This document shows positions 499-28,100 of a stretch of DNA of 64,000 nt, piece by piece. The stretch covers positions 6,280 through 70,279 of the forward strand of contig JABHUQ010000111.1 of the NCBI GenBank assembly GCA_018658715.1, given 5' to 3'. The stretch comes from Fidelibacterota bacterium (GTDB lineage: Bacteria > Fidelibacterota > Marinisomatia > Marinisomatales > UBA1611). Every line of letters starts with the position of its first letter. Position 1 is the stretch's first letter. The translations under genes and the position numbers were made by a program. The notes beneath the pieces are model-generated. The model was not told the DNA's origin. It saw only the letters and a list, made by a program, of their open reading frames with translations, and searched no databases.

Positions 499-1368
499 TT
501 ATAATATAATCTTAGAAAGCAAATCGTTAAAATTATCTATGATAGAAAATAATTCGGTCTTGGTATCTGTTAATTGGGTAATTGCATTTCCGCCAACAAA
601 AATTTTGATATTATGCTTTAAAGCTATAGTCAATAATTCATCTAACTCTTCTTCTATTTGGTCTAGGTTTTCAATGTAATTCACTGAGATTACTATATAC
701 TTTGGATTTAGTTGATCAATTAATCTTTTTAAAAACTTTATTGGGAAATTACGACCCAAATTAAGTGTCTTGATTTGATTCAATTCTAACAATTGTTTAA
801 CCATAATTAATGGTAATTCATGATCATCGCCAGTAAAAGTGAAACATATGGCTGCGGTATCATCAACCAATGGAGGATATTCCAATAATTCGCCCAAATC
901 ATAGAGAGCTATACGAACTGCTTCAGATGCTAAATGTTCTTCATAAACTGACAGTTTATCAGCTGCCCATAAATAGCCTATTTTATGTAAAACTGGGAAT
1001 ACAAGTTTATCATAGATATTATGCAATGGATTGCCTTTTAAATATAGGCCAGTAAGTATAGTAATGAGTCGTTTATTATCAGCAAGAATTGAAGCATTAA
1101 GAAAGAGAGGGCATAATTCGTTATAATCGCCCTTCTCGATATAATGTATCAAATTTTTATCGGCCAATCCCTGTAACTCAAAAAGATTTACCTTTTGAAC
1201 TTTTTTCTTATTGTTTTTTAAAAATATATTGATATGGGCAAGTGTAAATTTTCTATGACCACCCTGTGTTTGAAAGCATGGTAACATATTAGCATCAGTC
1301 CAACGCTTTATGGTGGAAACATTAACTCCCATTAATAGGGCGACATCTTTGGAGTTCAAGTATCTCAT
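499..1368 (-). CDS. MerR-type HTH plus cobalamin-binding domain regulator (CarH/LitR-like)
   Basis: N-terminal HTH (DVALLMGVNVSTIKRW...TQGGHRKF); W-x9-EH motif (WAADKLSVYEEH); Rossmann B12-binding elements DDHELP...ISV...FVGG. Confidence 0.85.
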   Translation of the reverse strand: MRYLNSKDVALLMGVNVSTIKRWTDANMLPCFQTQGGHRKFTLAHINIFLKNNKKKVQKVNLFELQGLADKNLIHYIEKGDYNELCPLFLNASILADNKRLITILTGLYLKGNPLHNIYDKLVFPVLHKIGYLWAADKLSVYEEHLASEAVRIALYDLGELLEYPPLVDDTAAICFTFTGDDHELPLIMVKQLLELNQIKTLNLGRNFPIKFLKRLIDQLNPKYIVISVNYIENLDQIEEELDELLTIALKHNIKIFVGGNAITQLTDTKTELFSIIDNFNDLLSKIIL

Positions 1369-12038: not shown

Positions 12039-13802
12039 ATGAAAAAACAATTACGACATTTATGGCTCATTTCCATCTTTTTCACGATATCATGTGCCTA
12101 TTTTAACACATTCTATAATGCTCAATCGTATTTTGATAAAGCAGAAGATCAGAGGCTCGAAAAATTAGGACAAAAATTGCCCAACTCTGTTTTGGATGCT
12201 TATGGCAAATCGATTAAACGGTGCCAGAAAGTGATTAATGATTATCCTGAGTCTCGATTTAGAATCCCAGCTATGATGCTTATGAGTAAAGCAAGATATT
12301 ATCGAAGTGAATACAAAAGTTCATTAGAACAACTTCAAGAGATTAAACAAAGCGATCGTGATGAATACGCGGAAGAAGTTGACTACTGGATAGCTTTATG
12401 CAAATGGAGGCTAGGTAAAGTTCAATTTGCATTAGATGCACTACATCAATTAAGTGAAATATCTAAATCAAGAGATCTAAAATCTCGATGTTTACTTTCT
12501 CGTGCAGATATTAACCTAGAATTATCACAAGATAGTGTTGCTCTCGAAGAGTTGGAAGCGGCAGCCGAATTAGCAAGGAATAATACCCAAAAGTCCCAGA
12601 TCTATACTCGTTTAGCAGATCTTGCATTTAAAAAAGGAGATTATGAAAAAGCTTTATCTGCTTTTAAAGGTGTTGTTAAAGCATCTCTATCTCGAACGAA
12701 AATTGAAAATTCTCATCTTCAAATATTAAAGATATATCGTATACAAGGGGATTATAAAACGGCTACCCGAAAAATTAAATCTATGTTGGCTGATGAGAAA
12801 TTTAAGAAAATTGCTGGTCAACTTGATTTGGAACTTGTTCAACTCTACATTGCGCAAGGGGAAATGGCACAGGCAGAGACACGGTTACAATCAATAGTTA
12901 ATGATTACCAAAGGTCTGCTGTATCAGCTGAAGCATATTATTTATTAGGTCAAATAATGATTGAATCCTATTGGGACTTAGAGAAAGCTGACGAATATTA
13001 TGGAAAAGTAGGGAAAGAATATAATAAAACACCATTTAAATTTTTGGCAAGTGAGAAACAAAAAGACATTCAATTATACACGACGACAAGAGAAAATATA
13101 ATCATTTGGGTAGATGAACAGTCCAACCCAGATACGCTTAATACTTTGAATGATACAACTGAAGTAGAACCAAAATTATTATCAGATTTTGATCCTGCAG
13201 AAGCTTACTATTTACTCGCTGATTTAGAAGCATTCAAATTCAATCGATTAGATTCAAGCTTAATAATAATGGATAAAATCCAGACGGATTTTACAGAATC
13301 AGCATTTTATCCGAAGTCACTCTTTACATCAATCTTTATTCATAATCAATTAGGTGATTCGTCAAAGAGCCAAATTGCAAAGAATAATTTAGTACTTCAT
13401 TTTCCGAATTCTGAGTATGCCTATTTCTTATCAGAAAAAGTAAATACCAAAGAATTAGAACCCATTGAAATAAAATTTAAAAATGCAGAATCCTATATCT
13501 CCACAGATATGAGTCGAGCGTTATTATCATTTATTGAAATTACAAAAACTGATTCTTCAGACGAATTATCTGCTTCAGCAGGTTATTATTTAGGGCATCA
13601 TTATGATTGGATTAATGTAATCCCTGATAGCGCAGTTAAATATTATTCATGGGTTTCAAATCATCATTCAAATACTGATCAGGGCAAATCTGCATTAAAT
13701 CGATTAAATACTATTTTAAGTGTTTTAGCAGACACATTGGCTCAAGATATTTCTTTAACACCAGATTCCACAATTTTAGACACTATAAATATTGATCAAT
13801 AG
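12039..13802 (+). CDS. TPR-repeat lipoprotein (SprE/PorW-like by motif resemblance)
   Basis: Lipobox TISC followed by AYFNTFYNA; many TPRs (VINDYPES, EAYYLLG, HFPNSEYA). Confidence 0.8.
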   Translation: MKKQLRHLWLISIFFTISCAYFNTFYNAQSYFDKAEDQRLEKLGQKLPNSVLDAYGKSIKRCQKVINDYPESRFRIPAMMLMSKARYYRSEYKSSLEQLQEIKQSDRDEYAEEVDYWIALCKWRLGKVQFALDALHQLSEISKSRDLKSRCLLSRADINLELSQDSVALEELEAAAELARNNTQKSQIYTRLADLAFKKGDYEKALSAFKGVVKASLSRTKIENSHLQILKIYRIQGDYKTATRKIKSMLADEKFKKIAGQLDLELVQLYIAQGEMAQAETRLQSIVNDYQRSAVSAEAYYLLGQIMIESYWDLEKADEYYGKVGKEYNKTPFKFLASEKQKDIQLYTTTRENIIIWVDEQSNPDTLNTLNDTTEVEPKLLSDFDPAEAYYLLADLEAFKFNRLDSSLIIMDKIQTDFTESAFYPKSLFTSIFIHNQLGDSSKSQIAKNNLVLHFPNSEYAYFLSEKVNTKELEPIEIKFKNAESYISTDMSRALLSFIEITKTDSSDELSASAGYYLGHHYDWINVIPDSAVKYYSWVSNHHSNTDQGKSALNRLNTILSVLADTLAQDISLTPDSTILDTINIDQ

Positions 13803-14868
13803 AATGAGACTAACACTCTTTTCTTTTTTGTATAAAATAATTCGAAAAATTTCAATTATGCTATATTCTTTTTGGTCGATGTTAATGGGGAAACCATTCG
13901 ATTTAGAAACTATCTCGGATTTTGGTAATCGCCAATTGTCTCATTTGGATTCTATGCCATTCGATCTATTTTATTCATTTTCAATTCCAAATGGAATTAT
14001 CACATCTTTTTTAAATTATGAATTTAAATCTCCCTTAATTGCGGCTTCATTCCAGCCTGATAAGAAAGCTCTTTCAAGATGGCTAAGATTTGGGCTCGGT
14101 GGAGTTACATTTAAAACTATGATGCTTGATCCCCAAACTGGCAATGAGAGACCACGCTTATCAGAAATAATGGTTAATGGTAAAAAATCGTTTATAAATG
14201 CAATGGGTTTGCCAGGTGAAGGAGTTCAGTCATTTGTAAACACCATTCTAGATGAAAATATTTTTCCTAGGGAAATACCATTAGGTTTAAGTATTGGAGG
14301 CGATAATAAAGAAGAATATGTACAGGTATTTCATGACATTAATCGGAAAATGAGTTCTATATATTCTCAATTATTTTATGAATTGAACATTAGTTGCCCA
14401 AATACAAATGATGGGAAAATGTTAAGTGAACATCCAGATGATTTATTATATGTTTTGTCAAAAATTCGAGAAGAGAGCCAGTGTCCTATAATCATAAAAT
14501 TATCGCCAGATCAAGACGAAATTGAAATACTTCGTATGATTGAAACAATTAAATCCGTTTCAGATATTGGAATTAATACAGGTAATACATCATATATGAG
14601 TAGAGAAAAAGCCGGATTAAATGAATACAACTTCAAGCCTGTTGGTGGTGGCGTGAGTGGACCTAGCCTTTTTCTCAAAGTATTAAATATGATTAAATTA
14701 CTTAAACCCTTTAAGTTGCCAATTATTGCAACAGGTGGTATTGATTCTGGGGAAAAAGCAAAAGCAGCTATCCATGAAGGGGCCACTCTAATTGGAATGG
14801 CGTCAGCTCTAGTAATTGATCCATATTGTATTCCTCGAATAAATCAATATTTGGGTATTCATAAATGA
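13792..14868 (+). CDS. pyrD: Dihydroorotate dehydrogenase
   Basis: GGVTFKT, NAMGL, ELNISCPN, IKLSPD, GNT, GGVSG, IIATGGI. Alternative start ATG 13804. Confidence 0.85.
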   Translation: MINRMRLTLFSFLYKIIRKISIMLYSFWSMLMGKPFDLETISDFGNRQLSHLDSMPFDLFYSFSIPNGIITSFLNYEFKSPLIAASFQPDKKALSRWLRFGLGGVTFKTMMLDPQTGNERPRLSEIMVNGKKSFINAMGLPGEGVQSFVNTILDENIFPREIPLGLSIGGDNKEEYVQVFHDINRKMSSIYSQLFYELNISCPNTNDGKMLSEHPDDLLYVLSKIREESQCPIIIKLSPDQDEIEILRMIETIKSVSDIGINTGNTSYMSREKAGLNEYNFKPVGGGVSGPSLFLKVLNMIKLLKPFKLPIIATGGIDSGEKAKAAIHEGATLIGMASALVIDPYCIPRINQYLGIHK

Positions 14869-15320
14869 TTACAGTCGTTTTATTAGACCCAAAGATACCA
14901 CCCAATACGGGAAGTACAGCTCGTTTATGTGGTGCCATGAATGTTAAACTAGATATTGTAGGAAATATTGGTTTTGAGTTAACGGATAGTCGATTGAAAA
15001 GGGCGGGGCTTGATTATTGGGATCATATAGAGTGGAAATATCATGCGGATAGAGATTCATATATTTCAGAATTAGTGAAAAAACGGTTCCATTTTTTAAG
15101 CACAAAATCAGATAAACCATATACAAAATGCGAATTTAAAGATGGAGATTATCTTGTTTTTGGGAGTGAAACAGCTGGGATAGAAGAATCATTGCTAAAA
15201 AAATATTGGGATAATACTTGTACAATTCCCATGATTAATCCAAATATCAGAAGTTTAAACTTAGCCACAAGTGTAGGAATTGTGTTGTATGAAGCCCTTA
15301 GGCAAACAGATGCATATTAA
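14865..15320 (+). CDS. trmL: tRNA (cytidine/uridine-34-2'-O)-methyltransferase TrmL
   Basis: PKIPPNTG, LKRAGLDYW, VFGSETAG, IPM...RSLNLATSV. Confidence 0.95.
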   Translation: MITVVLLDPKIPPNTGSTARLCGAMNVKLDIVGNIGFELTDSRLKRAGLDYWDHIEWKYHADRDSYISELVKKRFHFLSTKSDKPYTKCEFKDGDYLVFGSETAGIEESLLKKYWDNTCTIPMINPNIRSLNLATSVGIVLYEALRQTDAY

Positions 15321-15777
15321 AGGATCAGTATATTTATTAATTTTATTGTTTGGTGGATGTGCTAGTTCTCCGCGGTATGGTGCGTCATCTACATCTGTAC
15401 CAAAACTTAGTAAACCAGGAAAATCAAAGAAGCCCATTCGCCATCAAAAAATAATGACAGGTATTAGTTCATTCTATGCAGAAGATTTCCATGGAAAATT
15501 GACAGCTAATGGAGAAGTCTATGATATGTATGGTGTAACAGCAGCTCATAAAACACTTCCATTGAACACCATTGCTCGTGTAACAAACCTTGATAATGAT
15601 AAATCACTAATCCTTAGAATCAATGATCGTGGCCCCTATGTTAAAGGAAGAATATTGGATTGCTCATATGGTGCAGCAAAGAAACTAGGATTCTTGAATA
15701 AAGGGACTACACGTGTTAAAATCGAAGTCATAGAGTGGGGAGATAATAAGTATATGAAACATAGAAGTAAGCCATAA
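15310..15777 (+). CDS. rlpA: Septal ring lytic transglycosylase RlpA family lipoprotein
   Basis: Lipobox FGGC; SFYAEDFHGKLTANGE, TAAHKTLP, RINDRGPY double-psi barrel. No SPOR domain. Probable start 15310. Confidence 0.92.
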   Translation: MHIKGSVYLLILLFGGCASSPRYGASSTSVPKLSKPGKSKKPIRHQKIMTGISSFYAEDFHGKLTANGEVYDMYGVTAAHKTLPLNTIARVTNLDNDKSLILRINDRGPYVKGRILDCSYGAAKKLGFLNKGTTRVKIEVIEWGDNKYMKHRSKP

Positions 15778-16664
15778 TGAAAAAAATGTTTATGATAGTT
15801 AATCCTCATGGAGGATTAAAAAAGGGAATTGGAATTCTTGAAAAAGTTAGACCAATCTTTCAAAAAGCCCAGATTGAATTAACAATCCTTAAAACAGAAT
15901 ATGCAGGTCATTGTCGAGATTATGCTAAAGAAGTTGATTACACTGGTTATTCAGGCATATGTGCTATCGGCGGTGATGGGACCATGCATGAAGTAATCAA
16001 TGGTATGTTATGTAGGCCTGACAGGCGACAATTACCTATTGGGCTTGTAACTGGAGGTACGGGTAATTCGTTCATGCATGATTTAGATTGCTTGGACCCA
16101 GAAATAGCAGCAAAACGCATTGTGACAGAAAGAAAAAGAAGTATTGATGTTGCAAAAGTTGATGCAAATGGTGAAATAATTTATGGGTTCAATATTATTG
16201 GATGGGGAATGCCAACTGATATTAATGAGCTTTCAGAAAAAATGAGATGGCTCGGTGGACAGCGGTACAATATTGCTTCTATTATTGAAGTATTTAAGTA
16301 TAAGCAACGTTTAGCAAAACTAATTATTGATGGAAATACCGTCGTTGGTGATTTTGGGTTCATTCTAGGGTGCAATACTATTCACACTGGGAAAGGAATG
16401 AAAATGGCTCCTTTAGCGCAGTTAGATGATGGATTAATAGATCTCATTATAGCTCGGAAAGCAGGAAGATTAAAACTTTTATCCGTATTCCCAAAATTGT
16501 TTGGAGGGACACACGTAGGTGATCCAATTGTGGACTATCGGCAAGTGAAAGAATTCTCAATAATTCCCCAAGAAGATAACATTTTAAATATTGATGGAGA
16601 AATGATTGGTAATACACCTATCCATGTAACTGTAATGCATAATGCGATCGAAGTTTTGGTGTGA
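15777..16664 (+). CDS. Diacylglycerol/sphingosine kinase family lipid kinase (YegS/DgkB-like)
   Basis: IVNPHGG, GGDGTMHEVING, GGTGNS, LDDGLID, NIDGE. Confidence 0.92.
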   Translation: MKKMFMIVNPHGGLKKGIGILEKVRPIFQKAQIELTILKTEYAGHCRDYAKEVDYTGYSGICAIGGDGTMHEVINGMLCRPDRRQLPIGLVTGGTGNSFMHDLDCLDPEIAAKRIVTERKRSIDVAKVDANGEIIYGFNIIGWGMPTDINELSEKMRWLGGQRYNIASIIEVFKYKQRLAKLIIDGNTVVGDFGFILGCNTIHTGKGMKMAPLAQLDDGLIDLIIARKAGRLKLLSVFPKLFGGTHVGDPIVDYRQVKEFSIIPQEDNILNIDGEMIGNTPIHVTVMHNAIEVLV

Positions 16665-16675
16665 TATCCATCACG
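16660..16675. promoter_or_regulatory. CRP/FNR-family-like box upstream of cdsA
   Basis: TGTGA-TATCCA-TCACG, 9/10 match to TGTGA-N6-TCACA; overlaps the stop codon of the kinase gene. Confidence 0.35.
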
Positions 16676-16717
16676 ATTCATTATTAATAAAGAATGTAAA
16701 ATAGGAGTCAATTTTTA

Positions 16718-17542
16718 ATGTCTGCTCAATCTTCTGACAGAATGTTTATTAATATTATCGGGATACCTAGCTGGATAGCAATCATCTGGCTTGGTGGATT
16801 TTATTATTTTAGTTTTATAGCTGTATGTGCGTTAATTGGTCTTGTTGAATTTTATAGCATGTCTGAGCTAAAGGGTGTAACTCCAAATCGTTATGTAGGG
16901 ATTACATTTTCTATTCTGATATTAGCTTACTATTGGTTTACTCCACAGGTGAGTGAAACTCTTTTTATTGGTTTCTTAATTATTGGAATTATGTGGCTTC
17001 TTATGGAAGAATTATATCGTGGATTACCAAACGCTGTAGGGAATATGTCCTATACATTTTTTGGTATTTTTTATAGTCCACTATTGCTTGGGACAGCAAT
17101 ACCTATTCGTCAATTTGATTCAATAAATAATATTTCCTTAACCTTCGCATTAATAGTTAGCGTTTGGGCTTGTGATTCTGCCGCATTTTTCTTTGGTACA
17201 AAATGGGGTAAAAAGAAAATATTCCCCAGAGTAAGCCCTAAAAAGTCATATATAGGATCCATTGCAGGTGTATTTGCTTCATTCTTAGTAATGACTATGT
17301 TTCAATATTTTGGATGGCTTGGGGCAATGTTTACTGGGTATGATATATTTATTTTTAGTATGATTACAGGTATTTTAGGTCAAGTGGGCGATTTCGCAGA
17401 ATCATTAATAAAACGTGATGTGGGCGTAAAAGATTCAGGAACAATTTTAAGAGGTCATGGAGGTGTGCTTGATCGATTTGATTCCTTGATATTCGCCATG
17501 CCTATTGCCTACCTTTACACCCACTTTTTAGAACTTATTTAA
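16718..17542 (+). CDS. cdsA: Phosphatidate cytidylyltransferase
   Basis: WACDSAAFFFG, SPKKS, GDFAESLIKRDVGVKDSG.ILRGHGGVLDRFDS. Confidence 0.96.
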   Translation: MSAQSSDRMFINIIGIPSWIAIIWLGGFYYFSFIAVCALIGLVEFYSMSELKGVTPNRYVGITFSILILAYYWFTPQVSETLFIGFLIIGIMWLLMEELYRGLPNAVGNMSYTFFGIFYSPLLLGTAIPIRQFDSINNISLTFALIVSVWACDSAAFFFGTKWGKKKIFPRVSPKKSYIGSIAGVFASFLVMTMFQYFGWLGAMFTGYDIFIFSMITGILGQVGDFAESLIKRDVGVKDSGTILRGHGGVLDRFDSLIFAMPIAYLYTHFLELI

Positions 17543-17561: not shown

Positions 17562-19376
17562 ATGGAATTAAAATCAATTCTTGCCACAGATTGTGGGAGC
17601 ACTACAACAAAAGCAATCCTTATAGAAAAAATTGATGGTGAATTTCGTCTCAAAGTGAGAGGTGAAGCTCCAACTACCGTTGAAGCTCCTTTTGAAGATG
17701 TTACAAAAGGAGTCTTAAATGCGGTAATGGAAGTTGAAGAACTAGCAGGTCGTAAATTATTAGATGGTGACAATATTATGTCTCCTCAAAAAAATGGTTC
17801 CGGCGTTGACATCTATATCTCTACAAGTTCGGCTGGTGGTGGGCTCCAAATGATGGTGGCAGGCGTGGTTAAATCTATGACTGGCGAATCTGCAGAACGC
17901 GCTGCATTGGGTGCAGGGTCGATTGTTATGGATGTTATTGCATCAAATGATGGAAGATTACCACACGAAAAAATCAAACGTATACGCCAGTTACGACCTG
18001 ACATGATTCTACTGTCAGGAGGGATTGATGGCGGAACGGTGTCCCATGTTGTCGAATTGGCTGAAATATTAAGTGCAGCCAATCCTAAACCGCGGTTAGG
18101 GCAAAACTATAAGTTGCCCGTAATCTATGCTGGAAATATTAAAGCACAAGACCAAATACGTGACACACTTGGTGAATTAACTGATTTAGATATTGTTGAT
18201 AATATTAGACCCGTTCTAGAACGCGAAAACCTTGGACCATCACGCGATAAAGTACATGATTTATTTATGGAACATGTGATGGCTCAAGCTCCAGGTTATA
18301 AAAAATTAATGTCTTGGACAGATGCACCAATAATGCCAACGCCAGGCGCAGTTGGGTTTTTAATTGAAATGATTGCCAAAGAAGAAAATATTTCTGTTGT
18401 TGGGGTAGATATTGGCGGAGCAACTACTGATATATTTTCTGTTTTTTCAGGGAAATTTAATAGAACGGTAAGTGCCAATTTAGGGATGAGTTATTCTGTA
18501 TGTAATGTATTAGCAGAAGCTGGATTAGATAATGTATTGCGTTGGGTACCACTTGATATTGATCGAAAAGAATTAACAAATCGCATTGGCAATAAAATGA
18601 TTCGACCCACAACAGTCCCTCAGTCTCTAGAAGAATTAATTATTGAACAAGCCATTGCAAGGGAAGCATTGCGACTATCCTTTAAACAACATAAAGAATT
18701 TGCTGTTGAACTAAAAGGAGTTCAAACTGAAAGAACAATTTCAGATGCATTTGAGCAATCTGGATCCGGACAATCATTAGTTAATATGATGGATTTAGAT
18801 TTACTAGTAGGATCTGGAGGTGTATTATCTCATGCACCTCGTAGGTCACAATCAGCACGAATGCTTGTGGACGCGTTTCAACCTGAAGGAATTACTCAAT
18901 TAGCTGTTGATTCCATATTTATGATGCCGCAATTGGGTGTTTTAGCCAATATTGACAATAAGGAATTATCAGAAGAGGCTCTAAAGGCAGCTTTAGAAGT
19001 ATTTCATAAAGATTGTCTTATTCGTTTAGGTACATGTATTGCCCCTGTGGGAAAAACAAAACCTGGAACACTTGTTTTATCGGCTCATTTAGTATTTCAG
19101 GATAAATCCACACAAACGGTTGAATTGCACAATGGTGAATTAATAAAAATTGATGCACCTTATGAGCCTATTAAGGTAATATTAACACCAGCTAAAAAAA
19201 TGGATGTTGGATCAGGGGTTGGTGAACCAATTGAAACTGAAATATTCGGAGGCGTTACTGGACTTCTTTTTGATGGTCGCGGGCGACCGCTAGATGTTCC
19301 AATTGAAAAAGACAAGCGATTAGGCTTGCTTGAAAAATGGTCAAATGCAGTTGACGAATATCCGAAAAATAATTAG
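17562..19376 (+). CDS. GlmL/MutL-like (glutamate mutase L family) actin-fold ATPase
   Basis: Phosphate-1 ATDCGSTTTK, SSAGGGL, AALGAG, LLSGGIDGG, MPTPGAV, phosphate-2 VDIGGATTD, RTVSANLGM, adenosine motif GSGGVLSH. Confidence 0.88.
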   Translation: MELKSILATDCGSTTTKAILIEKIDGEFRLKVRGEAPTTVEAPFEDVTKGVLNAVMEVEELAGRKLLDGDNIMSPQKNGSGVDIYISTSSAGGGLQMMVAGVVKSMTGESAERAALGAGSIVMDVIASNDGRLPHEKIKRIRQLRPDMILLSGGIDGGTVSHVVELAEILSAANPKPRLGQNYKLPVIYAGNIKAQDQIRDTLGELTDLDIVDNIRPVLERENLGPSRDKVHDLFMEHVMAQAPGYKKLMSWTDAPIMPTPGAVGFLIEMIAKEENISVVGVDIGGATTDIFSVFSGKFNRTVSANLGMSYSVCNVLAEAGLDNVLRWVPLDIDRKELTNRIGNKMIRPTTVPQSLEELIIEQAIAREALRLSFKQHKEFAVELKGVQTERTISDAFEQSGSGQSLVNMMDLDLLVGSGGVLSHAPRRSQSARMLVDAFQPEGITQLAVDSIFMMPQLGVLANIDNKELSEEALKAALEVFHKDCLIRLGTCIAPVGKTKPGTLVLSAHLVFQDKSTQTVELHNGELIKIDAPYEPIKVILTPAKKMDVGSGVGEPIETEIFGGVTGLLFDGRGRPLDVPIEKDKRLGLLEKWSNAVDEYPKNN

Positions 19377-19388
19377 ATAAATAACATA

Positions 19389-20516
19389 ATGGCACACGCA
19401 TATACACCGGGACTTAAAGTATTACATCAATCTGATGTAGAAAAAAATAGACGACTGCCAATTAAAGGGAAAGTCGTTAAAAATATTGGCGATAATGTAT
19501 CTCCCGATATGATTGTCGCTAAGACTGATTTGCCCGGAAATGTTCAAATGGTAAAGGTATCAAATTTGCTGAATATTGGGCCTGGAGATATTAAGGATGC
19601 AATGATTGTGGCTATTGGAGATCATGTGGATAAAGATCAAGTCATTGCTGAAATGGCTGGTCTCTTTGGTCTTTTTAAATCAGACGTTAAATCACCAATA
19701 GATGCAACAATTGAGTCCATTTCCGATATTACAGGCCAAGTTGTCTTAAGAGAAAAACCAATTCCTGTAGAAGTGGATGCATATATGTCTGGAACAGTGA
19801 AAGATATTATTCCTGAAGAAGGAGTTATCGTCCAAGCAACTGCTGCCTTCATACAGGGGATTTTTGGTATCGGTGGTGAAAGCCGTGGTGAAATTGTAAT
19901 GGTGACTGATAATAGGAGTGATGAAATTACTCCCAATCATATTTTAGAAGAGCATGCTGGGAAAATAATCGTAGGTGGTTCATTCATAAGTTTAGAGGCT
20001 TATCGGAAAGCAATTTCAATGAAAATAGCTGGTGTTGTTGTTGGTGGTTTTAATTATTTTGATCTTGAACCTATTTTGGGATATACATTGGGTGTAGCTA
20101 TTACTGGTAGTGAAGATTTAGGAACATCTTTAGTTGTAACTGAAGGATATGGGAAAATATATATGAGTGATAGAACATTTTCCTTATTGAAAGAACATGA
20201 AAACAACTTTGCGTCAATTAATGGGGCTACTCAGATTCGCGCTGGTGTTATTCGGCCAGAAATTGTTATTCCATTGAGTGATGCTCAAAAGTCAAATATT
20301 GAAGAAACTCGAGATCAGGAAATAGGAATCGGGGTTGGTAGTTTGGTCCGGATAATTCGTGCACCATATTTTGGTAAAATTGGAAAAGTAAAATTATTAC
20401 CTTCAGAATTGAATAAAATGGAATCAGAAACGATGGTACGCGTAGCAGAAGTGGATGTAAATGGAGACATCCTAATAGTTCCACGGTCCAATTTAGAAAT
20501 GCTGGAGACTAATTGA
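19389..20516 (+). CDS. Conserved hypothetical protein with barrel-sandwich hybrid repeats and a C-terminal KOW-like domain
   Basis: IGDNV..DMIVA / IGDHVDKDQVIA...VKSPIDATI lipoyl-like repeats; GVVVGG; TEGYG; IGVGSLVRIIRAPYFGKIGKV...VPRSNLE. Confidence 0.75.
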   Translation: MAHAYTPGLKVLHQSDVEKNRRLPIKGKVVKNIGDNVSPDMIVAKTDLPGNVQMVKVSNLLNIGPGDIKDAMIVAIGDHVDKDQVIAEMAGLFGLFKSDVKSPIDATIESISDITGQVVLREKPIPVEVDAYMSGTVKDIIPEEGVIVQATAAFIQGIFGIGGESRGEIVMVTDNRSDEITPNHILEEHAGKIIVGGSFISLEAYRKAISMKIAGVVVGGFNYFDLEPILGYTLGVAITGSEDLGTSLVVTEGYGKIYMSDRTFSLLKEHENNFASINGATQIRAGVIRPEIVIPLSDAQKSNIEETRDQEIGIGVGSLVRIIRAPYFGKIGKVKLLPSELNKMESETMVRVAEVDVNGDILIVPRSNLEMLETN

Positions 20517-20839
20517 ACTCTATCGCAACTCACTCCAATAATTCTGCTGATTTAACTCAGCAAGATATTCAATTTATCAAAAATATTGCAAAGAGAATTT
20601 ATAATTCAGGATTAGTGACACCTGCAGTTTTATTTCTAGAAATGACAAAGCCACTTTCCTTATTAGGAAGTCATTTTCTTGTATTCTTTGGTCCCATTAT
20701 TAATGCTTTTATTCGCGCAGAAAATTATTATAGGGCAACTGAAATAATGGAAGAACCAAAAAATGTGGAATTATTAATTAAAGAAATTGAAGCTTTAGAA
20801 TGGGCAAATGAAAAGCCCGAAACGGAGAAACACTCATGA
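20513..20839 (+). CDS. Small conserved hypothetical protein
   Basis: TTG start overlapping the upstream stop (TTGA), GGAG RBS; PAVLFLEMTKPLS motif with a hydrophobic core. Confidence 0.75.
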   Translation: MNSIATHSNNSADLTQQDIQFIKNIAKRIYNSGLVTPAVLFLEMTKPLSLLGSHFLVFFGPIINAFIRAENYYRATEIMEEPKNVELLIKEIEALEWANEKPETEKHS

Positions 20840-21699
20840 GAGACAAACAGTTCTGGATTGGTTCTGGTATTATTATAGTCTTTTTATTGATCTATAATAT
20901 AATTGGACATCCACATTTCTTAACAAATCGAACCGTCATGTTTTTTGCGATTTTATTATTCTCTGGAACGTTAATTTATTACACAAGAATGGCAATAATG
21001 GGAGAACCCATCTTCCTACGTGATATTCCGGGACTTAAAGCTGTTGAAGAAGCAGTCGGAAGATCCACGGAAATGGGCAAGCAAGTCCTTTTTGTCCCTG
21101 GTATAATGGATATGGACCAAGTCGAAACGGTGGCTGGCGTCATTGTATTGGGGCATGTGGCTAAAATGACAGCAAGATACGAAACGCCATTAAATGTGCC
21201 TGTATCACGAGCCATTGTGATGAAGGCAGGCCGAGAAGCATGTAAAGAATCTTACCTAATGGAAGGTCGTCCTGATTTATTTCAAGATGATATGGTGCAT
21301 TATTTAACTGATGACCAATTTGCTTATGCAGCAGGTGTAAATGGAATTATGGTTAGGGAACAGCCAGCTGCATGTTTGTATATGGGGAAATTTTTTGCAG
21401 AATCCCTCATTTTAGCTGAAACAGGGAATTCTATTGGAGCTATTCAAATTGCTGGTACAGCATCTCAGTCACAAATTCCATTTTTTGTTACTGCATGTGA
21501 TTATACATTAATCGGAGAAGAATTTTTTGCAGCTAGTGCCTATCTCTCACAAAAACCAGAATTATTGGGAGGCATCAAAGGTCAGGACGTTCTAAAGGCT
21601 ATTGTGGTTGGAACAATATTATTCGCAACCATTCTTAGATTTTTCCATGATATGGGTTGGGTGTCTTGGGATATCATGAAATTTTTAACCATTCAGTAG
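20836..21699 (+). CDS. DUF6754-like membrane protein
   Basis: LRDIPGLKAVEEAVGRSTEMG, QFAYAAG, AESLILAETG, QIPFFVTACDYTLIGEEFFAASAYL; TM segments at both termini. Confidence 0.75.
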   Translation: MRDKQFWIGSGIIIVFLLIYNIIGHPHFLTNRTVMFFAILLFSGTLIYYTRMAIMGEPIFLRDIPGLKAVEEAVGRSTEMGKQVLFVPGIMDMDQVETVAGVIVLGHVAKMTARYETPLNVPVSRAIVMKAGREACKESYLMEGRPDLFQDDMVHYLTDDQFAYAAGVNGIMVREQPAACLYMGKFFAESLILAETGNSIGAIQIAGTASQSQIPFFVTACDYTLIGEEFFAASAYLSQKPELLGGIKGQDVLKAIVVGTILFATILRFFHDMGWVSWDIMKFLTIQ

Positions 21700-21709
21700 G
21701 AATTTAATT

Positions 21710-22528
21710 ATGTTTTGGAAAAGAACTATTCCCATTGCCATCGTAGGTCTTGTGGGGTTTTTAACATTATTTGGCTGGTTTATCGATCAGCCCAACATTA
21801 AAGCATTCGTCGAAGATGATGCAACACAATGGTATGATATTTTAGCCAGTTTTGCCATTTTCCTTGGAGCATTAAACCTATTGAAAATGCAATCGCAAAA
21901 AATTCTTAAAAAACAAAAAGGATGGCAATACAGTATCTTCGCTGTTGGTGGATTTGTATTCTCAATATTAGCTGGATTTGTAATTAAGGGAAACGATGCT
22001 ATTCAATGGGGAGCACATGTTACTGGAAAAGGAACATTATTTAAATGGATGTTTGAATTTATGTTTACACCATTGGCAGCAACAATGTTTGCCCTATTAG
22101 CATTTTTTGTGGCATCAGCATCATATCGTGCATTTCGAATCAGAAATTTCGAAGCAACTCTTTTATTAGTTGCAGGAATTATAATTATGCTGGGTCGAGT
22201 TCCAATCGGGTTAAGAATATCGTCTTGGTTTGTTATGTATATTACATTGTTAGGATTTAGTATTGTTGTGAATACATATTTTAAAAATAAACAAATTACA
22301 TTAGCCTTTGTTGGGGGTGGGATACTCCTAATAACCATAGCAGGATACTTAATGGGATGGCCGATTGATGAGCCGGGATTATTTTACCTACCTGTTTTAC
22401 AAGATTGGATTTATAATATACCAAACGTAGCTGGAACAAGAGCAATTATGATTGGAATTGGACTAGGTATATTTGCAACATCAATGCGATACATTCTTGG
22501 CATTGAAAAATCATACATTGGAGAATAA
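21710..22528 (+). CDS. Polytopic membrane protein of the GlmL-like operon
   Basis: About 8 hydrophobic segments; PLAATMFALLAFFVASASYRAFRIR, RAIMIGIGLG. Confidence 0.8.
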   Translation: MFWKRTIPIAIVGLVGFLTLFGWFIDQPNIKAFVEDDATQWYDILASFAIFLGALNLLKMQSQKILKKQKGWQYSIFAVGGFVFSILAGFVIKGNDAIQWGAHVTGKGTLFKWMFEFMFTPLAATMFALLAFFVASASYRAFRIRNFEATLLLVAGIIIMLGRVPIGLRISSWFVMYITLLGFSIVVNTYFKNKQITLAFVGGGILLITIAGYLMGWPIDEPGLFYLPVLQDWIYNIPNVAGTRAIMIGIGLGIFATSMRYILGIEKSYIGE

Positions 22529-22530
22529 TC

Positions 22531-23379
22531 ATGAATAGTTTTTTAAATATGATTTCACAGTTTGGCCAATTAGATAGACGATGGATTTTCCTTATTATTG
22601 CACTTGTTGTATTGTTACCTTTATTCTTCCCAATAGGATTACCCATTCGTGCGACTGAATCTACAAGGCAAGTTTGGGAAACTGTTGAAAACCTAGAGCC
22701 AGAATCAAAGGTTCTAATGTCTTTGGAGTATGGACCAAGTACAAAACCAGAACTTCACCCTATGGCATTTGGCATCATTCGGCATTTGCTAAAAAATGGC
22801 CACAAAATATATATTACATGCTTATGGCCTGATGGCCAGTTCATGGCTGAAGATATCATAGAAAAAGTCATTGAAAAGGAATTTCCCCATAAATTCTATG
22901 GTGAAGATTTTGTTCTTTTAGGATTCAAACCAGGCAATGAAGCAGTTATAAAAGGGATTGTTAGTAATATTAGAAAATTATATACAGTGGATGCACGCGG
23001 AAAATCTGTAAATAGTATCCCAATGATGAAAGGTGTAAATCAATTTAAAGATTTTGACTTTCTATTTTCAGCAAGTGCAGGATACCCTGGCACCGTTGAA
23101 TGGGTACAGTACGCATCGGATCCAACAGGTGTTCCAATGAGCACAGGTACAACTTCTATTCAAGTGAATGAAGTGATGCCGTATGTGCAAGGTGGGCAAG
23201 TGAAAGGCATCTTAGCTGGTATGCCGGGAGCAGCCGAATATGAAGCATTAATTGGGATCCCTGGAATTGGAACAAGTGGAATGGATGCACAATCTATTGC
23301 CCATGTTGTTATAGTATTATTCATTGTTTTTGGAAATGTGGCTTTTTTCGTTGAACGGAAAAAATCACAAAAATATTAG
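22531..23379 (+). CDS. Membrane-anchored protein with extracytoplasmic alpha/beta domain (GlmL-like operon)
   Basis: N- and C-terminal TMs; EYGPSTKPELHP, YGEDFVLLGF, PY...GQVKGILAGMPGAAEYE. Confidence 0.8.
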   Translation: MNSFLNMISQFGQLDRRWIFLIIALVVLLPLFFPIGLPIRATESTRQVWETVENLEPESKVLMSLEYGPSTKPELHPMAFGIIRHLLKNGHKIYITCLWPDGQFMAEDIIEKVIEKEFPHKFYGEDFVLLGFKPGNEAVIKGIVSNIRKLYTVDARGKSVNSIPMMKGVNQFKDFDFLFSASAGYPGTVEWVQYASDPTGVPMSTGTTSIQVNEVMPYVQGGQVKGILAGMPGAAEYEALIGIPGIGTSGMDAQSIAHVVIVLFIVFGNVAFFVERKKSQKY

Positions 23380-23381
23380 AG

Positions 23382-24227
23382 GTGGTTGAAATGAGTGGTG
23401 AAATTATTGGTGCTTGGATAGCGGTATTTTTAACATTAGCTATTTTCTCCTATTTGTATAAAGATAATGCATTTTACAAAATCGCTGAACATTTATTTGT
23501 TGGAATTTCTGCAGGCTATTGGACATCCATGTTTTTTTGGACTCAGATTCAACCCAACCTATTTGGACGACTATGGCCATCAAGCCACTATAATGCTGAT
23601 TCTTTTTGGTATTCTATTTATAATGGGTTAAGCTGGTTTAGTAGTTCAGTATTTCCTGTTGGTGGAATCGATAAAGGTCATGAGTTGCATTTAATTTATC
23701 TTATACCATTTGCGTTAGGTATTATGATGCTATTAAGTGTGGTAAACCAATGGAGTTGGTTTGCACGGTGGGGTATTGCTTATACAGTTGGAATGGCAGC
23801 TGGCTTAAGGGCTTATGGCTATTTAAATTCAAATGTTATTGCTCAAGTTCGAAATTCTACGCTTAATTTTTCTGATCCTGATTTGCCAGTTTTTGCATTA
23901 ATAGGCAATAGCTATTTCAATGGATTACTTTTGCTAATTGGAACCATCGCTGGATTATTGTATTTCTATTTTTCTAAGGAGCATAAAGGCACATTTGGAA
24001 AAGTAGCACGTGTTGGTATTTATTTTCTAATGGTGAGTTTTGGCGCATCATTTGGATTTGCTGTAATGGGGCGAATATCTTTACTAATCGGTCGTTTTGT
24101 AGATTTGATTACTTATAATGGTGCTGAGTACCATCATGCTACGTCTTGGATATTGATAAGTATGATTATTCTATTAGGGTATTCAACATTTAAAAATGAT
24201 AATCATGGTGAAACCCCAGTAGAATAA
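23382..24227 (+). CDS. Polytopic membrane protein of the GlmL-like operon
   Basis: LTLAIFSYLYKDNAFYKIAEHLFVGISAGY, LLYFYFS, FLMVSFGASFGFAVMGR. Confidence 0.8.
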   Translation: MVEMSGEIIGAWIAVFLTLAIFSYLYKDNAFYKIAEHLFVGISAGYWTSMFFWTQIQPNLFGRLWPSSHYNADSFWYSIYNGLSWFSSSVFPVGGIDKGHELHLIYLIPFALGIMMLLSVVNQWSWFARWGIAYTVGMAAGLRAYGYLNSNVIAQVRNSTLNFSDPDLPVFALIGNSYFNGLLLLIGTIAGLLYFYFSKEHKGTFGKVARVGIYFLMVSFGASFGFAVMGRISLLIGRFVDLITYNGAEYHHATSWILISMIILLGYSTFKNDNHGETPVE

Positions 24228-24280: not shown

Positions 24281-24344
24281 GAGGCTTTGAACCTTTCTTT
24301 TTTGTCTTGTGTCCATTATATTTCATCTCTGGGAACCTACCAAA

Positions 24345-25097
24345 ATGAACATATTTAGGCTAAAAAAGATCATTCTTGCGACTTTTACAATCGTGTCTAT
24401 CACGAGTCAAGTCTTTGGTGTTGAGCTAAATCAATTCATCGGGACCTGGACAGGGACTGAATCATTATCTAGCGATTTTGTTGATAATTATAGCAATAAA
24501 CCAATTTCGATTGATATTTCTGATGCAGAAAATAGGGAGGGGTTCCTCTCATTTTTATCTTCATCAGAATTTATTTTTAATGAAGATTTAATTTGGGCTA
24601 TCCATTATTTTACTTATGATAAAGAAACTCATCAAATTATTTTTTATAAATGCTTTATTACTCCGCTAGGCTTACTTGGGAATCACGAACTAAGATATAA
24701 TATTTTAGAAATTAATGAAAATCTCATGGTATTAGACTATAGTACGCAAGATAATGATACGGTACATCAGATCAGAGTTTCTAGAGATGCGCTGGGAGTT
24801 GACTCTAAATCGATAGCTTCAATTTTTAAATTATCACAAAACTACCCAAACCCATTTAATCCTGAGACTGCCATTCAAGTGAATCTTCCTCAAGATGAAT
24901 TTATTCAGCTTGAGATTCTAGATATTAGTGGACGAATTGTGAATCAGCTTGTTAAAGGTATACAATCTGAAGGTATTCATTCTTTTCGTTGGAATGGGAC
25001 TAATGCTTCAGGAAAATCTGTGAGTGCTGGAACATACATCTATCGTTTATCAAGTGAGAGTGGAATTGAATCTAAAAAAATGATTCTATTAAAATAG
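24345..25097 (+). CDS. Secreted protein with FlgD-Ig/T9SS type A-like C-terminal domain
   Basis: Signal peptide; lipocalin-like FIGTWTG start; C-terminal QNYPNPFNP...WNG...SAGTYIYRL...KKMILLK. Start reassigned to ATG 24345. Confidence 0.8.
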   Translation: MNIFRLKKIILATFTIVSITSQVFGVELNQFIGTWTGTESLSSDFVDNYSNKPISIDISDAENREGFLSFLSSSEFIFNEDLIWAIHYFTYDKETHQIIFYKCFITPLGLLGNHELRYNILEINENLMVLDYSTQDNDTVHQIRVSRDALGVDSKSIASIFKLSQNYPNPFNPETAIQVNLPQDEFIQLEILDISGRIVNQLVKGIQSEGIHSFRWNGTNASGKSVSAGTYIYRLSSESGIESKKMILLK

Positions 25098-25151: not shown

Positions 25152-25179
25152 GGGGCTTTATGAGAGGGGCTTTATGAGA
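25152..25179 (+). repeat. 14-bp tandem duplication spanning the start codon of the M6 protease
   Basis: GGGGCTTTATGAGA occurs twice; this creates the mini-ORF MRGAL* (25160-25177), which overlaps the main ATG. Confidence 0.9.
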
Positions 25180-28100
25180 AAAATTTTACTCATACCATTA
25201 TTTATTTTTCAATCTATATTATGGGCTACTTGGTTTAATAATGTTCCAAAAACTCTTTTACAACCAGATGGTGAAAAAGTAGAATGTTTTATTTCAGGTG
25301 ATCAATTTTATCATCGACTTCATGACAAATCTGGGTTTACTATCGTTCAAAACCCAGCAAATGGATATTTTGTATATGCCATAGAAAATGCAGATACTAT
25401 TAGACCATCTTCATTCATTGTAAATCAAATTGACCCAACCCAAATGGGATTGATCCCAAATCTTATGCTCTCATCTGAAGCATATCATGAACGTAGAAAT
25501 CTTTTTGAAGATGAAATTTCTCGTGATGGGCGTGATGCCCCTACGTCAGGAAATATCGAGCAAATCAATGTATTTATAAAATTTGCAGATGACCCTGCAT
25601 TTCCTAATCCACGATCTTATTATGATGCTGTTTTTAACTTAGAGAATGAACCTTCTTTAAAACATTATTTCCAAGAAGTTTCATACAATTCACTCGATGT
25701 AAACACACATCAATTCCCAGGCACTTTTACAGATGCTAATACAGCATACATTGATGAACATGAAAGAGGGTATTATAGTCCTTATACTAATACTAATCTG
25801 ATAGGATATCAAACGGATGCACAACGAAGTGAGCGTGAACATAATTTGTTAAAAAATGCTATTGAAGCTATTGCATCTCAAGTCTCATCAGACTTAGTGA
25901 TTGATGCAAATAATGACGGATATGTAGATGCTGTTTCATTTGTTATTTATGGTGAACCGGATGGGTGGGCGGAATTATTATGGCCCCATCGTTGGGCTCT
26001 ATATTCGGAAGATGTCTATATCCATGGCATTCGTGTTTGGGATTATATGTTCATGCTGAGTGAATCGTGGTACTTTAATGTGGGTGTTCTTTGTCACGAA
26101 TTTTTCCATGTATTGGGCGCTCCAGATTTATATCATTATGAAGATACAGGTGCTCCGTCAGCTGTTGGTGGTTGGGATATTATGGAATCTACTAGCCAGC
26201 CACCCCAATATATGTCTGCTTTTATGAAATATAAATATGGCGATTGGTTTGATAATATTCCTGAAATCACTGAATCGGGTCAATATGAACTAAATCCATT
26301 ACAATCTCCTGAGAATGCTCTCTATAAAATTGCATCCCCTAATTCTGAATCAGAATATTTCGTGGTTGAATATCGGAAAAAAGAAGGTATTTATGAAGTA
26401 AATACACCTGGAAGTCGATCTGGATTGGTAGTTTATCGAATTAATACAGAAGCGGGGAATGGAAATGCAGGTGGACCGCCTGATGAAATATATGTTTATC
26501 GCCCAGGAGGAACTTTATCAGCGAATGGGAATTTCAATAATGCTCCATATAGTAGTGATTACAACCATACAGCTATCAATGATGGTACAAATCCATCTAG
26601 TTTTTTATATAACAATGGGTCAGGTGCTCCTGGTGGTTTAAATATTTTTGATGTGGGTGAAGCTGGAGAAACAATTACATTTTATGTCGGATTTGGCATA
26701 CCGCATTTAGTTGTAACACCTGAATCTTATGAACCTTCTATTAATTTGAATAATATTTTAACTGAATCATTTGTTATAACCAATGAAGGAGATGATGGGT
26801 CTGCGGTAAATTATAGTGTGACGGCCACAGATCCACCTGCATTTGAGACGCCAGCACTGGGGCCAGATGGTGGGAATTACATTGTAGCATATTCAACCGA
26901 TGAAGTTTCTCTAGGCTATGATTGGATTGAAATAGAAGGACTGGGAACAGAAGCTATATTTGAACATAATGATGTATCAACAAGTCCAATATCTCTTCCT
27001 TTTGCATTCCCTTTTTATGAAAATAATTATTCCCAGTTCATTATTAACCCGAATGGATGGATTGGTTTTGGGGAAGATAATAGCAATTGGTCCAATGTAG
27101 AAATACCATCTCCGGATGGCCCGATTCCTGGTATTTTGGGATTTTGGGACGATTTAAATCCTGAGAATACAGCTGGCGGTGGTTCGCCTTCAGGAAATGT
27201 TTATTATCATTTTAATGATAATAGGATTGTTGTTTGGTATGATCATGTTGTTCGGTGGAATACATCTGATCCTGGGACTTTCGATTTCCAAATTGTCCTA
27301 TATCCTGACGGAGAATTCCGTGTGAATTATAGACAAATGACTGGTATTGTTAATTCTGCTACGGTTGGTTTTCAAAATGCTGAAGGAAGTGACGGATTAT
27401 TAATTACATATAACGCATCTATGCCAGATAATAATGAATTTACATGGGCAGCAGATCGACCTAACAATTTACCATGGCTTAGTTTAGACGGTCTTGTAGC
27501 CGGGCAATTAAATGGCGGAGAATCAAGCACTTTTACTGGAATTATCAATACGACCAATTTGAATGTTGGATACTATCAAGGATCCATTAACGTGGTAGGG
27601 GAAGGGGCAAATACAGTTTTAGTTCCGGTTAATTTGACTGTTACAGATAATAATGGCGATACACCAACACTTCCAGTTTTAGATATTTCATCTTCTGAAA
27701 ATGGTATTGTGGAGCTTCCAGACTGGGTAAACCCATTATTTAGGGATGCATTTAGCAGATACACACATATTCCAGTTAATAATGGAGATGTTATTCCGAT
27801 ACTAATCCAAGACGATTTAACAGAAAAACAAATCAATCATGTGCGGAAAATATTAGAATCTCATTTAACTTCGATTTTTGGAAGTGAATGGGGAAATGAC
27901 AAAACGGCTGTTCGAGATTCGATTGCGATGAGTAATGCTATTTTATTTTTATTGAATGATGAAGATGAATATGATAATCCAAATCTAGAAGCATTAATGA
28001 ATGCTGATGTTGTTGGACAAGATTTATTAGCAACCGAAATATTTCCAGAGTCAAGCCCGGAATATATAATGAGTTCTGAAAGAGATGCTAGTTATGAAGA

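Follow-up and report, generated by a model that had tools for sequence, protein, structure and literature searches.

In a 64,000-nucleotide stretch of a Fidelibacterota (Marinimicrobia) contig, referred to here as the window, seven genes on the plus strand (17562-24227), which we call g1 to g7, encode a GlmL-like ATPase, a soluble partner of this ATPase, a small candidate adaptor and four membrane proteins. When such genes are compared across genomes, they resolve into two modules, a cytoplasmic one (g3-g1-g2) and a membrane one (g4-g5-g6-g7, found in one to three tandem copies), and we lean towards the view that together they form a single conserved ATP-driven machine of the cell envelope. 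As a whole the system is new, in the sense that it is real and widespread and that no part of it has a described function. The initial annotation of this DNA knew of no experimental description of it, and we likewise found none in open-access full text and bioRxiv, searched at the level of main texts; in the same sources we found no papers on DUF6754, PF20539 or PF13941, the family names under which its two recognisable members are filed, and what surfaced for GlmL was a paper on an E. coli mesaconase and an unrelated one on ThiC.

Co-occurrence and gene order of the two modules

The observations that tie the ATPase to the membrane genes are phyletic. In a sample of 101 genomes of the phylum, DUF6754 (the family of g4) and an orthologue of g1 (61-100% identity) occur in the identical 67 genomes and are both absent from the other 34. 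Among 81 sampled Planctomycetota genomes, both are present in 22, DUF6754 alone in one and g1 alone in none, and 58 lack the two altogether. Five genomes of other lineages, in which g1 was not within 10 kb of DUF6754, all turned out to encode one g1 orthologue elsewhere (62-67% identity). The initial annotation had named membrane genes that do not co-occur with the ATPase as grounds for refutation; the profiles support instead a functional tie between g1 and the membrane genes. Where g1 is encoded apart from DUF6754, the gene order is usually c26-g3-g1-g2, c26 being an eighth gene present in other phyla, whose product has two transmembrane (TM) helices and no confident family. We did not find c26 in the source genome, in a search made with one query and no positive control.

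Gene order adds to this picture. From a collection of species-representative genomes, 80 loci with membrane genes were kept, 36 of them with 8 kb or more on each side. The complete set of four membrane genes occurs in 70 of the 80, and in 35 of the 36 with full flanks; g5 follows g4 in 77, g6 is present in 74 and g7 in 70. Recurrence in the same order in 70/80 loci is far beyond chance. Either g1 or g2 lies within the same locus as the membrane genes in 41/80 cases (18/36 with full flanks). In an independent set of 67 metagenome loci of the g1 type, 54 extend far enough to include g2 after g1, and 42 of these do so; of the 23 loci that continue for 7 kb or more downstream, 11 contain the complete set of four membrane genes. 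Of the expectation that the block would be conserved intact across phyla, the part that stood is the ordered set of membrane genes; the part that did not is the single block, which proved to be two modules, often encoded apart, with the membrane module sometimes triplicated. In three loci from Zixibacteria and Ignavibacteria (L045, L048 and L053), one g1-g2 pair is accompanied by two or three g4-g5-g6-g7 sets in tandem, an arrangement that fits an engine shared between membrane modules. Tandem multiplication of the membrane module is also seen in L065, L072, L075 and L042, the last without g1-g2 in the locus, and the tandem copies differ in their periplasmic add-ons.

The system is widely distributed. 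DUF6754 matches 2042 protein clusters at 50% identity, and at least 597 stretches of species-representative genomes encode a relative of it (597 of 600 pattern matches, among the matches listed). Judging by record titles, the carriers include Marinimicrobia, Zixibacteria, Ignavibacteria, Eisenbacteria, WOR-3, Planctomycetota and Acidobacteria, and one record that has the system is of Singulisphaera (L079). Within the phylum of the source genome they include all six streamlined genomes, of about 1 Mb, of one family (f3). Since it is absent from 34/101 genomes of the phylum and from 58/81 Planctomycetota, the system is accessory, not universal.

In the window itself, the open reading frames (ORFs) lie exactly where seven co-oriented genes separated by 12 nt or less, or overlapping, had been described: the spacing from g1 to g7 is, in order, 12, -4, -4, 10, 2 and 2 nt, so that g3 overlaps both g2 and g4 by 4 nt each. 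Hydropathy bears out the description of g5 and g7 as polytopic and of g6 as anchored at both ends, and a pattern search for Walker A and LSGGQ, the signatures of ATP-binding cassette (ABC) ATPases that had been reported missing, found neither in any of the seven proteins; nor was there an ABC_tran match in Pfam. Only g1 and g4 reach Pfam cut-offs, the other five proteins being below them or unmatched, and g3, g5, g6 and g7 match no Pfam family at all. The 5' edge of the unit is not set by spacing, because five co-oriented genes (13792-17542, plus strand; DHO_dh, SpoU methylase, DPBB_1, DAGK/YegS and CTP_transf_1) extend to within 19 nt of g1. What delimits the seven-gene unit is its conservation across phyla and not the intergenic distance.

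Sequence of the block is also present in RNA libraries. Twenty public runs from 17 studies hold part of it, and 19 of these are recorded as RNA. Four marine metatranscriptome libraries, from four studies, gave contigs at least 99% identical across the block, and contigs from RNA libraries bridge cdsA-g1, g1-g2, g2-g3-g4, g4-g5, g5-g6-g7 and g7 with the next gene. In two runs of different studies (X1 and X6), contigs join 23066 to 20781 with five extra letters, leaving loose ends at 20798 and 23045; this junction probably reflects either a chimeric assembly or a short match that belongs to another organism.

The ATPase, its partners and the membrane proteins

The product of g1 (17562-19376, plus strand) is a protein of 604 residues of the GlmL/MutL family, whose actin/Hsp70-type fold is shared by the ASKHA (acetate and sugar kinase/Hsc70/actin) ATPases. 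It matches the MutL family PF13941 with 409.3 bits (gathering cut-off 27) over residues 6-467, covering profile positions 1-440 of 450, and has about 135 additional C-terminal residues beyond this match. The more specific NCBIfam models all score below their cut-offs: 217.2 bits for the GlmL equivalog NF040745 (cut-off 475), 209.1 for NF040744, the equivalog of Or-4 in ornithine degradation (cut-off 600), and 152.8 for the GlmL subfamily TIGR01319 (cut-off 204). By these scores g1 is best seen as an orphan relative of GlmL, as had been proposed. All three nucleotide motifs said to be intact were located, DCGSTTTK at residue 10, DIGGATTD at 283 and GSGG at 417, and we take them to be the phosphate-1, phosphate-2 and adenosine motifs of ASKHA proteins. 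K17, the residues of DIGGATTD and S418-G420 are invariant in 21 g1 orthologues, and G417 is kept in at least 90%.

Compared with 20 orthologues from several phyla, g1 is 59-80% identical and has about 250 invariant columns, which makes it the most conserved component of the system when set against g2 and g4-g7. The engine subunit of a machine is usually its most conserved component. The source genome has a single copy of g1. Some Planctomycetota have a second, divergent paralogue (41-46% identity) beside the orthologue (G137:C4, G124:C95, G169:C106 and G188:C19), and lower-scoring copies of DUF6754 (about 313-337 bits) are also found in some genomes of that phylum; these divergent copies suggest, at the sequence level, that the system has subtypes. 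Searches of the PDB by sequence or profile, with g1 and with its alignment, returned chance-level rows only. Thus g1 resembles GlmL/MutL and Or-4 in its homologous ATPase core and intact motifs, and differs from them not only in its scores and its C-terminal extension, but also in always being paired with g2 and co-occurring with DUF6754, in a phylum where glutamate mutase was found in 0/101 genomes.

The second gene, g2 (19389-20516, plus strand), encodes a soluble partner of 375 residues, for which Pfam gave a sub-threshold match to RnfC_N (22.5 bits, cut-off 25.6). Its predicted structure (mean predicted local distance difference test score, pLDDT, 85.8) has three parts. Residues 49-123 of the model resemble a barrel-sandwich hybrid, with NqrA (Z 7.6) and RnfC (Z 7.5) as matches over 64-65 residues aligned by VIA-align. 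Residues 152-296 form a putative swivelling beta/beta/alpha domain, closest to enzyme I of the phosphotransferase system (PTS; 2wqd, Z 9.4, root-mean-square deviation (rmsd) 2.7, 105 aligned), followed by RraA (3c8o) and rifampin phosphotransferase (5hv1), both at Z 8.7, and lower down by the C-domain of pyruvate kinase (Z 8.0) and aconitase X (Z 7.5). Residues 313-375 match KOW/SH3-like domains (Z 9.0, rmsd 1.2, 51 aligned). Orthologues of g2 are 42-65% identical.

In 47 protein clusters, g1 and full-length g2 are a single polypeptide of 974-1022 residues; the fusion was checked individually in cluster P0273 and in locus L082. Three shorter fusion clusters are probably truncated, and the two of them that were checked (P0314 and P0319) start inside the MutL domain. 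Since g1 and g2 can be fused, it strongly appears from the sequences that the two function as a physical pair. Cluster P0294 (707 residues), in which g2 is joined to the first half of DUF6754, was given no weight, being a single truncated record with a possible frameshift.

The small g3 (20513-20839, plus strand; 108 residues) is predicted to consist of a conserved hydrophobic hairpin, with one hydrophobic stretch at residues 48-67, and a charged helical tail, and is a candidate adaptor. In other phyla it lies just upstream of g1, and it adjoins g1 or g2 in 42 of the 67 metagenome loci. In loci of the Zixibacteria and Ignavibacteria type (L046, L053, L065, L075 and L089) a gene of about 255 codons is found next to g1, lying between g1 and g2 where g2 is also in the locus (L053, L065 and L075). 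In its product a signal peptide and a domain of about 200 residues are combined with a TM helix at the C-terminus and a basic tail; scans of two copies (L053 and L065) gave no Pfam family.

A more distant family of fused GlmL and g2-like proteins (P0322-P0337, about 809-1074 residues, 24-34% identical to g2) includes members with an N-terminal HTH_3 domain (P0323 and P0326), and some sources name its members 'glutamate mutase L'. Eight metagenome loci encoding such proteins (L092-L099) have none of the g3-g7 genes, 47 scanned neighbours revealed no shared context, and a methylmalonyl-CoA mutase lies within 7 kb at one locus only. On sequence grounds this family looks like a second orphan branch.

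Of the membrane proteins, only g4 (20836-21699, plus strand; 287 residues) belongs to a named family: the match to PF20539, 374.7 bits over residues 28-271 (gathering cut-off 27), confirms its description as DUF6754-like. Hydropathy places an anchor at both ends of the protein, and in the predicted structure (pLDDT 85) two TM helices at the N-terminus are followed by a Rossmann-like alpha/beta domain, whose five strands alternate with helices, and then by a long TM helix at the C-terminus. The fold matches form a flat, generic list, from TrkA/KTN at Z 9.8 down to Z 8.5 at rank 50 and including sirtuins and methyltransferases, and therefore point to no function; a Foldseek search with the model gave nothing at or below 1e-3. 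The g4 core shares 45-62% identity with 24 representatives of clusters built at 50% identity, and has 39 invariant columns that are rich in E, D, Q and T and include one C. The orthologue alignments contain no invariant His and no Rossmann glycine motif, and a HAD-like DxD after strand 1 was dropped from consideration, as its aspartates vary across relatives.

Long relatives of g4 (n = 24) carry N-terminal extensions, in which FN3 was found in two and a PQQ_2/BamB-like propeller over its cut-off in seven; the propeller was below cut-off in three more, and 12 had no second family. One variant of g5 (L045:14452-16230) carries FG-GAP repeats. FN3, propeller and FG-GAP domains are typically extracytoplasmic modules. 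Because the add-on domains precede the TM helix that leads into the DUF6754 core, we infer that this core is cytoplasmic.

The other three membrane proteins are g5 (21710-22528; 272 residues) and g7 (23382-24227; 281 residues), both with multiple hydrophobic segments, and g6 (22531-23379; 282 residues), in which N- and C-terminal TM anchors surround a domain of about 210 residues; all three genes are on the plus strand. The domain of g6, putatively of alpha/beta type, would be periplasmic by the positive-inside rule. The orthologue alignment has a conserved DRR before the first TM helix and a basic C-terminal tail. Conserved motifs are also found in the alignments of g5 and of g7, and orthologue identities of the three proteins are about 33-74%. 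It had been claimed that the membrane proteins match no characterised transporter, and this agrees with what we see: PDB searches by sequence or profile with the alignments of g5, g6 and g7 gave chance-level rows only, the ESM Atlas returned unnamed clusters only for g6 and nothing for g5, and Pfam scans of each member of the three alignments (E up to 1) showed no consistent family. Sub-threshold TMD0_ABC matches occurred in 7/19 members of the g5 alignment (best E 0.004) and were read as hydrophobic noise; ABC2_membrane_3 appeared in 1/19 (E 0.012), and an NCBIfam match of g5 to MAB_1171c was set aside (19.9 bits against 100). BLASTP and hhalign comparisons of g4 with g6 and of g5 with g7 showed no homology, and the four membrane genes are therefore not a duplicated pair. 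The reading of P0124 as a g4-g5 fusion proved unsupported.

The proposed mechanism and its alternatives

In the machine that we favour, the cytoplasmic module would consist of the g1 ATPase, g2 (often fused to it, about 1000 residues in all) and the small g3, and the inner-membrane module would have the Rossmann-like domain of g4 on its cytoplasmic side, g5 and g7 as polytopic subunits and the domain of g6 in the periplasm. As g1 opens and closes with nucleotide, its movement would be passed through the swivel domain of g2 to the alpha/beta domain of g4, and then by way of the membrane helices to the periplasmic side, where the domains differ between copies and lineages and where the outcome would be either mechanical work on a partner or movement of a substrate. 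The protein contacts other than g1-g2, the hydrolysis of ATP, the topology, the direction of work and the substrate are those that we infer. More tentatively, the system may represent a new class of primary envelope engine, in which an ATPase of the GlmL family with a swivel partner drives a four-protein inner-membrane module, and in which one such engine may serve as many as three interchangeable membrane modules with different periplasmic recognition domains.

Several points weigh against such a machine. In about half of the fully flanked loci the two modules lie separately, and the system is accessory rather than universal. The generic list of fold matches to the g4 model gives no hint of function, and the chains of known reactivases are outside the best 50 matches to the g2 model. 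We know of no ASKHA ATPase established as a primary energiser of membrane transport. The contigs from RNA libraries may come from DNA carry-over, and a contig that spans two genes is not proof of a single transcript. Contact between the two modules, ATPase activity and transport are all proposals. A complex prediction for g1, g4 and g3, with g3 as the partner, gave a score of 0.00 (mark 0.32) and counts neither way.

A working analogy, and no more than that, is offered by MacB, FtsEX, LolCDE and the importers that share an ATPase, which also combine a cytoplasmic ATPase with membrane subunits that have sizeable periplasmic domains. Mechanotransmission by ABC proteins and the shared-ATPase importers resemble the present system further in their variable periplasmic add-ons and in the use of one ATPase for several membrane modules. 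The differences are that the proteins described here have no Walker A or LSGGQ and no consistent ABC, FtsX or MacB match in Pfam, and that the fold of the ATPase is unrelated.

By analogy, the nearest mechanistic precedent would be the reactivases of adenosylcobalamin (AdoCbl) dehydratases. The reactivase of glycerol dehydratase, according to an excerpt of PMC7674605, pairs an Hsp70-like ATPase domain with a swiveling domain, to which a small beta subunit is bound until hydrolysis of ATP sets it free. For the ATPase, the swivel and the small alpha/beta protein in the layout of the diol and glycerol dehydratase reactivases (DdrAB and GdrAB), the counterparts here would be g1, the putative swivel of g2 and the Rossmann-like domain of g4. 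This parallel is one of domain type, because reactivase chains are absent from the best 50 fold matches of g2 (Z at least 6.9); the same is true of the best 50 of g4, and g1-g2 have no sequence match in the PDB. Further differences are that the swivel is here on a separate or C-terminally fused protein, and that the candidate client is an integral membrane protein with no adjoining B12 enzyme.

The precedent can also be taken literally, in which case g1-g2 would be a reactivase-type chaperone that acts occasionally, assembling, repairing or swapping a cofactor in a membrane enzyme centred on the DUF6754 domain. We regard this as unlikely, although it deserves serious consideration: GlmL, a named member of the g1 family, is described in an excerpt of PMC4682846 as a chaperone that reactivates glutamate mutase, the layout of ATPase, swivel and small alpha/beta client would match that of the reactivase in the excerpted part of PMC7674605, the 39 invariant columns of DUF6754 could be those of an active site, and the co-occurrence and synteny would fit equally well. 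What speaks against it is that g1 is more conserved than every membrane component, which would be unusual for an accessory chaperone, that g4-g7 showed neither a cofactor-binding motif nor a match to a known enzyme family, and that an invariant His and a Rossmann glycine motif are both missing.

One may also consider that g1 is a membrane-tethered actin-fold scaffold in the manner of MreB, FtsA or PilM, which would arrange the g4-g7 complex spatially instead of powering it, with g3 as a tether like PilN. In PilM-PilN-PilO, too, an ASKHA protein is combined with a small hydrophobic protein and with membrane partners that have periplasmic domains, and PilN is encoded beside PilM, much as the small hydrophobic g3 is directly beside g1 in most phyla. 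Domains of the scaffold type (propellers and FN3) on the membrane partners would also be in keeping with this. Pfam, however, places g1 in MutL: models of PilM, FtsA and MreB did not match it, and at E <=0.01 only MutL and a weak Hydantoinase_A were found. Furthermore, the obligate and often fused g2 has no counterpart in actin-like filaments or in the PilM system, the ORF and Pfam scans revealed no secretin or pilus genes in the block, and nothing in the proteins points to polymerisation, so that we consider a scaffold improbable. The FcmB actin of PMC12645912, which in the excerpt of that paper belongs to the relatives of ParM, is not relevant to g1.

A touch less probable still is a kinase-type group translocation or phosphorelay, in which g1 would transfer the phosphate of ATP, the swivel of g2 would carry it onward, and g4-g7 would import the substrate to be modified. 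ASKHA proteins include many kinases, the best match to the g2 swivel is the phosphohistidine domain of PTS enzyme I, and rifampin phosphotransferase and the C-domain of pyruvate kinase are next among the relevant folds. On the other hand, no invariant or near-invariant His was found among 15 g2 orthologues, nor a match to PF00391, and g2 is therefore not a phosphohistidine carrier of the type found in users of phosphoenolpyruvate (PEP). About equally good matches to g2 come from RraA and aconitase X, neither of which is a phosphocarrier, and proteins of the GlmL family are not known kinases. In 6/80 loci a PEP-utiliser gene is found no more than 10 kb from the membrane module, which is weak support, as several of these come from close relatives. 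The loci are L042 (a 993-residue form), L055, L057 (with the enzyme I domain set), L062, L080 and L083, possibly by chance, although the proximity is of note given that enzyme I is the best match to the g2 swivel.

The question of a vitamin B12 mutase arises for any protein of the MutL family. The seven genes include no mutase subunit, as the initial annotation had stated, and in the source genome, which is 96% complete, there is no match to glutamate mutase E (PF06368). Among the phylum genomes PF06368 is over its cut-off in 0/101, as independence from glutamate mutase would predict; the positive control of this search was a 424-bit match in G109. Lysine aminomutase (PF09043) was also without a match in the source genome, a weak blank because the family matched nothing in any control genome. 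Among carriers from other phyla, PF06368 is over its cut-off in 1/5, the exception being the same G109 (Ignavibacteriales). There, L091:6526-8463 encodes a 645-residue fusion of a weak B12-binding domain (25 bits, cut-off 32.1) with glutamate mutase E, in the unusual context of a polysaccharide-biosynthesis cluster, beside an Asp/Glu racemase; with no adjoining GlmL, no comparison of paralogues is possible. No B12-dependent client gene was found among the scanned neighbours in the window, and none recurs in the gene families of the 80 loci. About 17 kb upstream of the block, a 290-residue frame has a weak B12-binding match (around 574-849, minus strand; 30.2 bits against 32.1).

Methylmalonyl-CoA-type mutase (PF01642) is a different matter, being present in 95/101 genomes of the phylum. 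A B12 mutase encoded elsewhere wherever the ATPase occurs would have spoken against an orphan role, and PF01642 is indeed present in 67/67 carriers, with three matches plus B12-binding domains in the source genome, and retained in the five streamlined carriers tested. However, it is also present in 28/34 genomes without g1 and therefore does not track the ATPase; its presence in all carriers neither explains the ATPase nor formally excludes a B12 link. Methylmalonyl-CoA mutases use G-protein chaperones instead. Thus, despite the membership of g1 in PF13941 and the universal PF01642 of the carriers, it is very improbable that g1 is an ordinary AdoCbl-mutase reactivase serving, for example, a methylmalonyl-CoA-type mutase elsewhere, with the membrane genes as incidental neighbours, given that DUF6754 tracks g1 (67/67 and 0/34) as PF01642 does not, that g1 scores far below the GlmL and Or-4 cut-offs, and that the only PF06368 match over its cut-off, in one of five genomes from other phyla, lies within a polysaccharide cluster.

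Flanking genes and implications

Of the five genes upstream of the block, the DPBB_1 protein is RlpA-like, the one with DAGK_cat and YegS_C is a lipid kinase and that with CTP_transf_1 is CdsA-like. Homologous clusters of the five precede g1 in 11-18 of the 80 related loci, all of them from close relatives in which g4 is at least 59% identical; none was seen in other phyla among these loci. Directly 3' of the block, two genes on the plus strand (24309-25097 and 25174-29130) encode proteins with FlgD_ig and Por_Secre_tail, the latter a sorting domain of type IX secretion, and the larger product (1318 residues) also has a weak match to Peptidase_M6 (25.3 bits). Similar proteins with sorting domains flank the distant fused GlmL family in L092, L093, L096 and L098. 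A search of the window and of ten related loci against Rfam gave neither a riboswitch nor any other family, and a scan for promoters and terminators did no better than shuffled sequence (50 against 44.1 and 6 against 6.2, respectively).

Five of the seven proteins have no Pfam family, and the system nevertheless shows a level of conservation that is typical of core machines and is kept in streamlined genomes, of about 1 Mb, of abundant ocean bacteria. The analysis corrects the label 'glutamate mutase L' that some sources give to such ATPases, as seen on relatives in which g1 and g2 are fused, some of which carry the JGI label 'TIGR01319 family'. Whether the ATPase drives the membrane module or services it as a chaperone, the seven genes provide a concrete candidate complex for many proteins now labelled 'glutamate mutase L' or 'hypothetical'. 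If the ATPase does power the membrane module, ATP would here be coupled to the cell envelope in a new way, and if the system is indeed a new class of envelope engine, a new fold would join the ATP-powered membrane machines, alongside the P-loop (ABC, AAA and rotary) and P-type ones.

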